From the IMG/VR virus record IMGVR_UViG_3300037466_003757, positions 54,680 through 118,679 of that record: a stretch of DNA of 64,000 bases; one strand, given 5' to 3'. This DNA is from a virus. Taxonomy: Duplodnaviria > Heunggongvirae > Uroviricota > Caudoviricetes. Each line of letters begins with the position of its first letter. Position 1 is the first letter of the stretch. The notes under the pieces were generated by a model. The model saw only the letters and a program-made list of their open reading frames with translations, was not told where the DNA came from and did no database searches. Shown one piece after another: positions 48,645-49,370 of this stretch. The translations under genes and the position numbers were made by a program.

Positions 48645-48716
48645 TAGGCCCCCAGGGACTCGAACCCTGTTCTGCTGATTAAGAGTCAGCGGTTTTACCT
48701 GTTATACTAGAGGCCC
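48645..48716 (-). tRNA. tRNA-Lys(CTT)
   Basis: Acceptor with two G-U pairs; anticodon loop CTCTTAA; T-arm CAGGG-TTCGAGT-CCCTG. Confidence 0.55.
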
Positions 48717-49312
48717 ATTGTGTCTAACCACGTTTGAAAGACCACGACCAGACACGGTATTTCGTTATACTCCATGACGTAGTCCAGTTTTCGCTGATCA
48801 GCGTCGCTGAAGTATCCTTTCGCTTCGATATACAAATTCTCTTCCGGCAAGAAGAAATCTGGCGTATATCGCCGTAACTTACCCTCACCGTCGACGTAGT
48901 CGAGATAGATCTTACGAATCCAGTGACGTCCTTGCTTGTTAAGCTTTTCTGCCACTGCGAGTTCTAGTCGTCCACGTACGTGAAACTCTTGTCCCTCTAA
49001 ATTCGAGATCGTATAGTATTTGATGTGACGAAAACCACTCGCCCCACCTTCCTCAAGATATTTCGATCTTCCGATCGAAATATTACGACGTCCTACGTCT
49101 GACATCGCCTTTCTCGGCGTCAACCGAGGCCCTCTTGACTGGGAGAATCGTTGACGAGTCTCTTCCCGTTTCGGATTACTCTTGCACCAAGTCTTGTGCG
49201 CCCCTAATCGTTGACCGCCTATCACCGAGTCGCCACAGAACGGACAATTTTTTACTGTCTCATTGCGTTTTCGTGGCTTGGTTTCTTTCGCCCGAGGTTT
49301 TCTGGTCGTCAC
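48707..49312 (-). CDS. PD-(D/E)XK-family nuclease with N-terminal zinc finger (homing-endonuclease-like)
   Basis: CPFCG...H..WC zinc finger; C-terminal TPDFFLPEENLYIEAKGY PD-ExK motif; flanked by tRNA-Lys sequences. Confidence 0.5.
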   Translation of the reverse strand: MTTRKPRAKETKPRKRNETVKNCPFCGDSVIGGQRLGAHKTWCKSNPKREETRQRFSQSRGPRLTPRKAMSDVGRRNISIGRSKYLEEGGASGFRHIKYYTISNLEGQEFHVRGRLELAVAEKLNKQGRHWIRKIYLDYVDGEGKLRRYTPDFFLPEENLYIEAKGYFSDADQRKLDYVMEYNEIPCLVVVFQTWLDTMGL

Positions 49313-49325
49313 AGATAACTATATT

Positions 49326-49370
49326 ACGACCAAGAGTCAGGTGCTAAAAACCATCTCAGCTACGGAGGCA
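49326..49370 (-). pseudogene. tRNA-Lys 5'-half fragment
   Basis: GCCTCCG-TA-GCT-GAGATGGTTTTT-AGC-A-CCTGA-CTCTT..., paralogous to the 5' half of tRNA-Lys(TTT) and truncated at the anticodon loop. Confidence 0.4.

Follow-up and report, generated by a model that had tools for sequence, protein, structure and literature searches.

What is a nuclease gene doing inside a tRNA gene of a phage tRNA array? The question is raised by a 64,000-nucleotide (nt) stretch of viral DNA (Caudoviricetes; positions 54,680 to 118,679 of IMG/VR record IMGVR_UViG_3300037466_003757), hereafter the window, in which a sequence-only reading had noticed a nuclease gene among tRNA-Lys sequences and had taken it for a probable mobile or homing insertion. 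Since its large proteins are only ~25% identical to those of named actinophages (Gordonia, Arthrobacter, and Microbacterium phages), the window appears to represent a novel actinophage-like lineage. ARAGORN finds in it 42 tRNA genes, all on the minus strand, 40 of them in an array at 42.5-53.0 kb. As described below, the nuclease locus within this array is probably the footprint of a homing-type mobile nuclease cassette that carries a tRNA. We favour this reading because both halves of one tRNA bracket the insert, because the nuclease fold and the catalytic residues are confirmed, because homologues in unrelated phages sit in tRNA clusters and split tRNAs, and because an Acinetobacter homologue shows a clean filled/empty polymorphism in the anticodon loop.

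All features at the split locus lie on the minus strand, and coordinates refer to the whole window. An insert of 694 nt divides a tRNA-Lys(CTT) gene (type A), both halves of which persist. The 5' half (49369..49332; GCCTCCGTAGCTGAGATGGTTTTTAGCACCTGACTCTT, read from the sequence) spans the acceptor 5' strand, the D-arm, the 5' strand of the anticodon stem and the loop, and ends directly 3' of CTT. The insert then consists, in order, of a 19-nt leader that forms its left end (49331..49313; GGTCGTAATATAGTTATCT), an open reading frame (ORF) of 201 amino acids (aa) with a GTG start (49312..48707; ORF call and domain searches), a complete tRNA-Lys(CTT) of another type (type B, or tRNA-B; 48716..48645; ARAGORN; Rfam tRNA, 55.3 bits) and a 7-nt spacer, CTACTCG, that makes up the right junction and whose exact boundary is ambiguous (48644..48638). 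Beyond it lies the 3' part of type A (48637..48613; GCGGGTTCGAATCCTGCCGGGGGTA), with the T-arm, the acceptor 3' strand CGGGGGT and the discriminator A. The sequence-only reading had placed the ORF correctly and had recognised both the truncated tRNA-Lys upstream of its start codon, for which we refined the coordinates, and the full tRNA-Lys(CTT) said to overlap its stop by about 10 nt; the two share exactly 10 nt, with U8-A9-G10 of tRNA-B serving as the TAG stop codon. The 3' piece of type A had escaped that reading; the insert is the nuclease plus a whole second tRNA-Lys(CTT), not the nuclease alone.

For the comparison of the fragments, all ARAGORN-called tRNAs were masked and the flanks were compared with the 1135 tRNAs collected in this analysis. 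A single gene was the best match of both type-A pieces: the phage tRNA-Lys L014_4463-4535 (IMG/VR locus L014), matched at 100% over its positions 1-22 by the first 22 nt of the 5' half and over its 3' end, positions 48-73, by the 3' part (26/26). The acceptor strands of the two pieces pair 7/7 (2 G-U pairs). An intact paralogue of the disrupted gene resides nearby in the form of a tRNA-Lys(TTT) (49735..49807; ARAGORN and sequence comparison), with which type A shares a matching D-arm and an identical acceptor 3' strand. Neither ARAGORN nor Rfam called the 5' half as a tRNA. What type A lacks is ~8-11 nt: positions 37-38 (AA), the 3' strand of the anticodon stem, and most of the variable loop. 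An intact type-A-like tRNA-Lys(CTT) occurs in IMG/VR locus L067, found in a pattern search with AGCACCTGACTCTTNNTC, a pattern otherwise too common to inform, and when the gap was filled with 11 nt from L067 the reconstructed gene folded as a perfect cloverleaf. An empty-site variant of type A would be recognised by CCTGACTCTTAATCAGG joined to GCGGGTTCGAATCCTGCC. In its present state type A appears to be a dead relic, because the 3' strand of its anticodon stem is gone. The carried tRNA-B has no sequence relationship to type A except in the anticodon loop, and a search for its source with a D-arm pattern gave only chance matches in coding DNA. Both genes have the anticodon CTT, a coincidence expected by chance about 1 time in 38 given the ~38 different anticodons in the array.

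Could the insert be an intron? The sequence-only reading had left room for an intron-associated endonuclease and for a group I intron around the ORF. Rfam searches (E ≤ 1) found no group I or II intron in 42000-53500, where they returned only tRNAs and weak YrlA-like matches, and none at the homologous loci L139, L160, L168, and L190; on these results we rejected the presence of a group I/II intron, or of another known RNA, at the ORFs of the window and of the four loci. ARAGORN, with introns allowed or thresholds relaxed, did not rebuild the window's split tRNA, because the 3' anticodon stem is missing. With no intron match and part of the tRNA absent, the intron-associated version of the earlier proposal is not supported, and a mobile nuclease of homing type remains supported.

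The 201-aa protein begins with a C2HC zinc finger (C23-x2-C26-x12-H39-x3-C43; aa 20-43, ~49184-49255; alignment and AlphaFold), followed by a NUMOD3-like helix (aa 68-90, 49043-49111; family alignment and domain searches) and a T7-endonuclease-I-like PD-(D/E)XK domain (aa 95-195, 48728-49030). In the AlphaFold model (overall predicted confidence, pLDDT, 87) the finger takes a beta-beta-alpha form at pLDDT 95-98. The protein has the alpha-beta-beta-beta-alpha-beta core and the E ... PD ... ExK residues of the PD-(D/E)XK superfamily. All four catalytic residues are present (E117, D152, E163, and K165, in the motif P151-D152 ... E163-x-K165 plus E117); among 41 aligned homologues E117, D152, and K165 show no variation and P151 and E163 almost none. 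The finger and the catalytic motif that had been picked out from the letters of the sequence are thus both sustained, and so is the nuclease fold: a profile of the 41-member family matched T7 endonuclease I structures (E 5.5e-14) with the E, PD, and ExK residues aligned. The same profile also matched C2H2 fingers (E 4e-10). When the members were scanned individually, Phage_endo_I was found in 38/41 (E<0.01), C2H2 zinc-finger models in ~12/41, and NUMOD3 in 5/41; many of the 41 carry an N-terminal Cys-x2-Cys...His...Cys finger and the motif 'T.E.reKlS.aRSk'. The window protein itself was matched by PHROG 'endonuclease' families at E ~1e-11, one of which spans residues 12-169, and by PHROG 9019 'Holliday junction resolvase' (E 5e-6); no GIY-YIG domain was matched in Pfam or PHROGs. 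From these alignments the nuclease domain appears to be homologous to T7 endonuclease I and to belong to a distinct subfamily, in a family that has the modular architecture of homing endonucleases (NUMODs, zinc fingers). An exhaustive HMMER search of 1.84 billion representatives returned 1236 relatives, the best about 50% identical. The composition of the ORF is foreign to this phage (GC 0.485, compared to 0.56 ± 0.02 in 18 other long ORFs; ~3.7 standard deviations lower).

We then asked where the homologues of this nuclease reside. In 4/4 annotated phages examined (Stenotrophomonas phage IME13, Escherichia phage F25, and Acinetobacter phage Apostate, all Straboviridae, and Escherichia phage PhaxI, Ackermannviridae), the homologue lies inside or at the edge of a tRNA cluster, on the tRNA strand; in PhaxI, as in the window, the ORF and the next tRNA have 10 nt in common. 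Annotations of homologues in phages read 'endonuclease I', 'Holliday junction resolvase' or 'hypothetical protein', and full-text literature searches found no description of a link between this family and tRNA genes, an absence that is no proof. Each of the five best metagenomic homologues, which come from groundwater, ocean, and other samples, has tRNA genes on both sides and shares their strand. Among 80 IMG/VR loci retrieved using the family alignment, 26 matches cover the N-terminal region, and a tRNA lies within 500 nt of 23 of them; near the short endo-I-type proteins, matched in the nuclease domain only, there is mostly none. In 46 cases the locus has a tRNA downstream of the ORF: 18 of these ORFs run into the 5' end of that tRNA and 12 more stop ≤50 nt from it, so that 30/46 end between -80 and +50 nt of the tRNA start.

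Orphan tRNA pieces directly adjoin many ORFs of the family. A strict scan for brackets, defined by an upstream 5' acceptor strand with U8/G10 and a downstream T-arm with a complementary acceptor strand, neither within a called tRNA, found a bracketing split-tRNA pair at 5/48 loci, compared to 1/155 shifted control windows. At L160, the tRNA rebuilt by ARAGORN in intron mode is a complete tRNA-Ala(TGC), which encloses both the ORF and a tRNA-Ile(TAT) as a 654-nt insert at 37/38; a search for the corresponding empty site returned only its own contig. L190 is laid out like the window, with a 5' piece, the ORF, a full tRNA-Met, and a 3' piece whose acceptor strand is complementary at 7/7 positions. 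L160, where a tRNA-Ala is split by the ORF and a tRNA-Ile, led us to abandon the notion of a constant match between carried and disrupted tRNA.

Two observations concern genes outside this family. An HNH_3 gene in the tRNA array of L259 also overlaps the next tRNA by 10 nt (2462-2471); ending on the U8-A9-G10 (TAG) of a downstream tRNA therefore seems to be general among genes wedged in phage tRNA arrays and not a trait of this family alone. In groundwater phage contigs (L261/L262/L263, ~1837-2821), ARAGORN in intron mode reports a tRNA-Ser(TGA) whose halves are 906 nt apart, with a 283-aa gene between them on the other strand; this may be a further gene-in-tRNA insertion.

Filled and empty sites were seen in Acinetobacter phages. 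In Apostate, the tRNA that ARAGORN intron mode rebuilds in full is a tRNA-Met(CAT), interrupted after nt 36 by the 666 nt that contain the ORF. When the two Apostate halves were joined in silico into a 244-nt 'empty site', the joined site matched 27 Acinetobacter phages over its full length (about ten at 98-99%, the rest at ~90%), and in these phages it is annotated as an ordinary tRNA-Met/Ile with the same two neighbours. Five phages, namely Apostate, AM101, DLP2, AB-Navy97, and AC4, match it in two pieces. Comparison of Apostate (filled) with AB-Navy1 (empty, like Stupor) revealed a clean indel of 664-666 nt, flanked on each side by kilobases of 97-99% identity. This presence and absence of the gene at one site is the classic filled/empty signature of a mobile endonuclease gene, here in the anticodon loop of a tRNA.

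At another place, AB-Navy1 (L267) carries at 5266-5943 a 225-aa ORF, between tRNA-Asn and tRNA-Ser, that is absent there in Apostate. It has the zinc-finger/NUMOD3 N-terminus of the family, and its C-terminal domain is different, resembling by eye only a Vsr/DUF559-type nuclease (D...E.NG..H); upstream of it lies a TATAAATA motif. Its makeup suggests domain swapping among tRNA-cluster nucleases, as is typical of homing endonuclease families.

Taken as a cassette, how would the insert have arrived and spread? We propose that a break arose in the anticodon loop of a resident type-A tRNA-Lys(CTT), a gene paralogous to the tRNA-Lys(TTT) next to it. The cassette, with its short leader, its nuclease gene, and an entire tRNA-Lys(CTT) of foreign origin, would then have entered the break by copying or joining, at the cost of ~8-11 nt of the type-A gene. 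In the encoded protein, the zinc finger and the NUMOD3-like helix would provide sequence-specific DNA binding and the PD-(D/E)XK domain would cleave. The nuclease would recognise a long site in the type-A gene and most likely cuts intact target tRNA genes in cassette-free phage genomes, where repair from a cassette-bearing genome would spread the cassette. Insertion would destroy the target site and so confer self-immunity, and tRNA-B, with the same anticodon as the gene that it replaced, would maintain the decoding capacity. Because ~10 nt were lost, and because A and B have no homology outside the anticodon loop, repair by end joining or microhomology is suggested, which would fit a cross-lineage event better than clean homologous homing. 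The type-A halves could later act as homology arms for homing into intact A-type genes.

The left junction also carries predicted expression signals. A consensus scan placed a -35-like hexamer, TTAGCA, which is a pattern match only, within the D-arm remnant (49347..49342) and a -10-like TATAGT 5 nt upstream of the GTG (49323..49318), such that a candidate sigma-70-like promoter (9/12 consensus match, 18-nt spacer) would lie across the left junction. The start-codon region is predicted to pair in a hairpin whose 5' strand lies in the leader (-24.4 kcal/mol, z -2.4). No Shine-Dalgarno sequence was found in the leader upstream of the GTG; therefore a leaderless mRNA is plausible, and we infer a leaderless start at the GTG. 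Expression would then probably be confined to a leaderless transcript from the promoter that straddles the junction, while in read-through transcripts the hairpin would mask the start codon. Because the stop codon sits inside tRNA-B, RNase P processing of this tRNA could strip it from the mRNA, which, speculatively, might limit expression further. Members of the family in T4-type phages have TATAAATA late-promoter-like motifs at the equivalent position, in Apostate inside an inverted repeat. Regulation by a hairpin plus an internal promoter has been described for T4 homing endonuclease genes, including segB (PMC2988022).

Several findings weigh against a homing-type cassette. The insertion is imprecise, with ~10 nt of the tRNA lost, which differs from clean homology-driven homing. 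Because tRNA-B and type A have almost the same anticodon stem-loop, the immunity of tRNA-B would need recognition that extends beyond the anticodon loop. The matching anticodon is not a rule of the family (L160). Against Pfam PF05367 (Phage_endo_I) the window protein scores 24.1 bits, under the cut-off of 29.1, and the searched literature holds no biochemistry on any family member. Finally, neither the phage nor its protein has a close relative among the sequences searched, the best homologue being 52% identical, and therefore neither an empty site nor a donor arrangement was seen for this locus. The only database copy of the exact 201-aa protein is on a 172,958-bp metagenome contig from the Joint Genome Institute (JGI), and a 2.6-kb Logan contig (L009) is 100% identical to window 47416-50063. 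Among GenBank phages, megablast gave only tRNA-sized matches and no close phage; single-protein searches of IMG/VR gave relatives ≤36% identical; a metagenome scan for the type-A 5' fragment gave 0 matches. Inside the tRNA array lies a DUF7873 protein gene (44782-45591, minus; Pfam E 3e-91), whose relatives are ≤54% identical, with neither synteny nor the nuclease; homologues occur in other phage contigs, some with 30-tRNA arrays (L239, L251).

The imprecise junction would also fit a scenario in which the split tRNA is debris of illegitimate recombination or decay in a fast-evolving array and the ORF a passenger, for instance a Holliday-junction resolvase of T7-endonuclease-I type. The array does contain several other orphan T-arm and tRNA-like pieces, and the catalytic domain is homologous to a known resolvase, in keeping with the PHROG 9019 match. 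We regard this scenario as unlikely nonetheless, given that the type-A halves bracket exactly the ORF and the tRNA, with the same bracket in unrelated phages, that short endo-I-type homologues mostly lack a nearby tRNA while the zinc-finger/NUMOD3 forms are almost always in tRNA clusters, that the gene is dispensable and polymorphic in Acinetobacter phages, and that the composition of the ORF is foreign. A further possibility is that the interrupted tRNA still functions, the insert being a self-splicing or protein-removed intron or the halves being joined in trans. Precise rebuilding of the tRNA at Apostate and L160 invites such a thought, which we nevertheless consider highly improbable for the window: its split tRNA lacks AA, the 3' anticodon-stem strand, and some of the variable loop and can form no cloverleaf; no group I/II intron model matches here or at the four other loci; the ORF fills nearly all of the insert, and the Apostate insert has no terminal G; and the conserved residues are those of metal-dependent DNA nucleases.

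The nuclease may, alternatively, be retained for a benefit that it brings to the phage through the tRNA array rather than purely selfishly, its breaks driving amplification or exchange of anti-defence tRNAs or the exclusion of competitors. SegB of T4 cuts in tRNA genes and spreads neighbouring tRNA genes (PMC2330249), and SegB-driven amplification of tRNA anti-defence loci is reported in a 2026 study (PMC13096335); the family studied here is tied to tRNA clusters across phage families, and a tRNA is cassette cargo in the window, L160, and L190. Since some near-identical Acinetobacter phages have the gene and others lack it, we think it quite unlikely that benefit to the phage is the main explanation; it overlaps with a mobile cassette and does not exclude it.

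Other elements in the window were also surveyed. The sequence-only reading had counted three endonuclease families in the window. Its HNH gene (36830-37372) is solid (Pfam HNH, E 3e-13), whereas the proposed GIY-YIG gene (60807-61622, minus) found no match in Pfam or PHROGs and resembles that family by eye only ('IYAL...YRYIGLS'), which makes its place in the count of three doubtful. Between tRNA-Lys(TTT) and the split tRNA lies a candidate structured RNA of ~165 nt (49560-49725, minus), in which a 16-bp closing stem (AACAAGATCG.../...CGATCTTGTT) encloses three T-arm-like hairpins with TTCGAnT loops (minimum free energy -70.8 kcal/mol, z -2.8); it is not a canonical tRNA, and Rfam gives it a weak tRNA-Sec match (23.8 bits). 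Permuted tRNA-like modules occur on the minus strand at 44448-44553, 44624-44682, ~34820-34900, and ~35000-35080, in the order T-arm, loop-closed acceptor stem, U8-A9, D-arm; they resemble the tRNA-like domain of the Y-RNA-like YrlA, for which 44448-44553 scores 38 bits in Rfam, under the gathering score of 69. A degenerate cloverleaf with a 4-bp anticodon stem and a 6-nt loop directly follows the tRNA-Lys 3' fragment (48535-48605, minus), and a structured stretch containing a T-arm lies between tRNA-His and tRNA-Lys(TTT) (49890-49985, minus). Neither was called as a tRNA, and both may be further tRNA relics. ARAGORN also reports a tRNA with a 4-base anticodon (gtac; 51159-51234, minus), possibly frameshift-suppressor-like or degenerate, and a tRNA-Asn with the unusual anticodon ATT (48274-48345, minus).

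Large phage tRNA arrays are increasingly viewed as devices for counter-defence and codon adaptation, and how they are assembled and reshuffled is poorly understood; T4 SegB is the one well-studied nuclease that moves tRNA genes. A second nuclease family with a SegB-like lifestyle is indicated by this locus and by the survey of the family; it is widespread, occurring in actinophages, Straboviridae, Ackermannviridae, and many uncultured phages, and can carry tRNA cargo. A more far-reaching proposal, which we put forward only tentatively and judge doubtful in its full extent, is that zinc-finger/NUMOD3/endo-I-like proteins form an undescribed homing endonuclease family for tRNA genes, inserting into anticodon loops without an intron, often as nuclease plus tRNA cassettes, and acting as a major engine of array shuffling from actinophages to T4-like and Vi1-like phages. 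Bolder still, the nucleotide-precise interruptions in Apostate and L160 might yet be matured to tRNAs by a protein-dependent cut-and-ligate route. If the second nuclease family with a SegB-like lifestyle is confirmed, a new architecture would join the short list of homing endonuclease families and would offer compact zinc-finger-guided nucleases with long, tRNA-shaped targets. It would also account for part of the load of tRNA pseudogenes and fragments in phage arrays, and for the fact that annotation pipelines overlook the split tRNAs or name the gene 'endonuclease I / resolvase'.

How does the locus compare with known systems? In catalytic domain it resembles T7 endonuclease I (gene 3), whose E20/D55/E65/K67 align with the catalytic residues of the family. 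T7 endonuclease I, however, is a structure-specific junction resolvase of ~149 aa without DNA-binding extensions or a link to tRNA, while the window protein adds a zinc finger and a NUMOD3-like module and differs in genomic setting from the short endo-I forms; in this it departs from a small domain-swapped dimer free of extra DNA-binding modules. TnsA, the endonuclease subunit of the Tn7 transposase, shares only 15% sequence identity with the window protein. It works as part of a multi-protein transposase, and the locus has neither Tns partners nor transposon ends. HNH genes have been noted beside bacterial tRNA arrays (PMC8421152). A PD-(D/E)XK homing endonuclease in a tRNA gene is known in I-Ssp6803I, which resides in the group I intron of a Synechocystis tRNA-fMet. 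That intron is self-splicing and keeps the tRNA functional, whereas the window locus has no intron match, and I-Ssp6803I has neither a zinc finger nor NUMOD3 and belongs to a different PD-(D/E)XK subfamily.

In its position the insert recalls the mobE type of 'genes in pieces', in which a free-standing endonuclease gene is inserted within a phage gene, such as nrdA of phage Aeh1. In both, the endonuclease gene lies within, not beside, a phage gene and leaves it in two pieces. The split protein works as two subunits; a split tRNA cannot, and here a replacement tRNA travels with the nuclease. mobE is discussed together with the regulation of segB (PMC2988022).

By analogy, the functionally closest system would be T4 SegB, which recognises a tRNA gene sequence and spreads itself along with neighbouring tRNA genes. 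Both nuclease genes lie within a phage tRNA cluster, on the tRNA strand, and the hairpin and internal promoter of segB have a predicted counterpart at the window locus. The resemblance is functional and positional only, as the two proteins have no sequence similarity: SegB is a GIY-YIG enzyme and the window protein a T7-endonuclease-I-like PD-(D/E)XK nuclease with an N-terminal zinc finger. Moreover, SegB lies between tRNA genes, while genes of the present family split a tRNA gene in the window, Apostate, L160, and L190. For the window locus the mobile, homing-type reading has indirect support, and it would amount to a SegB-like lifestyle that uses another nuclease family and another mode of insertion.

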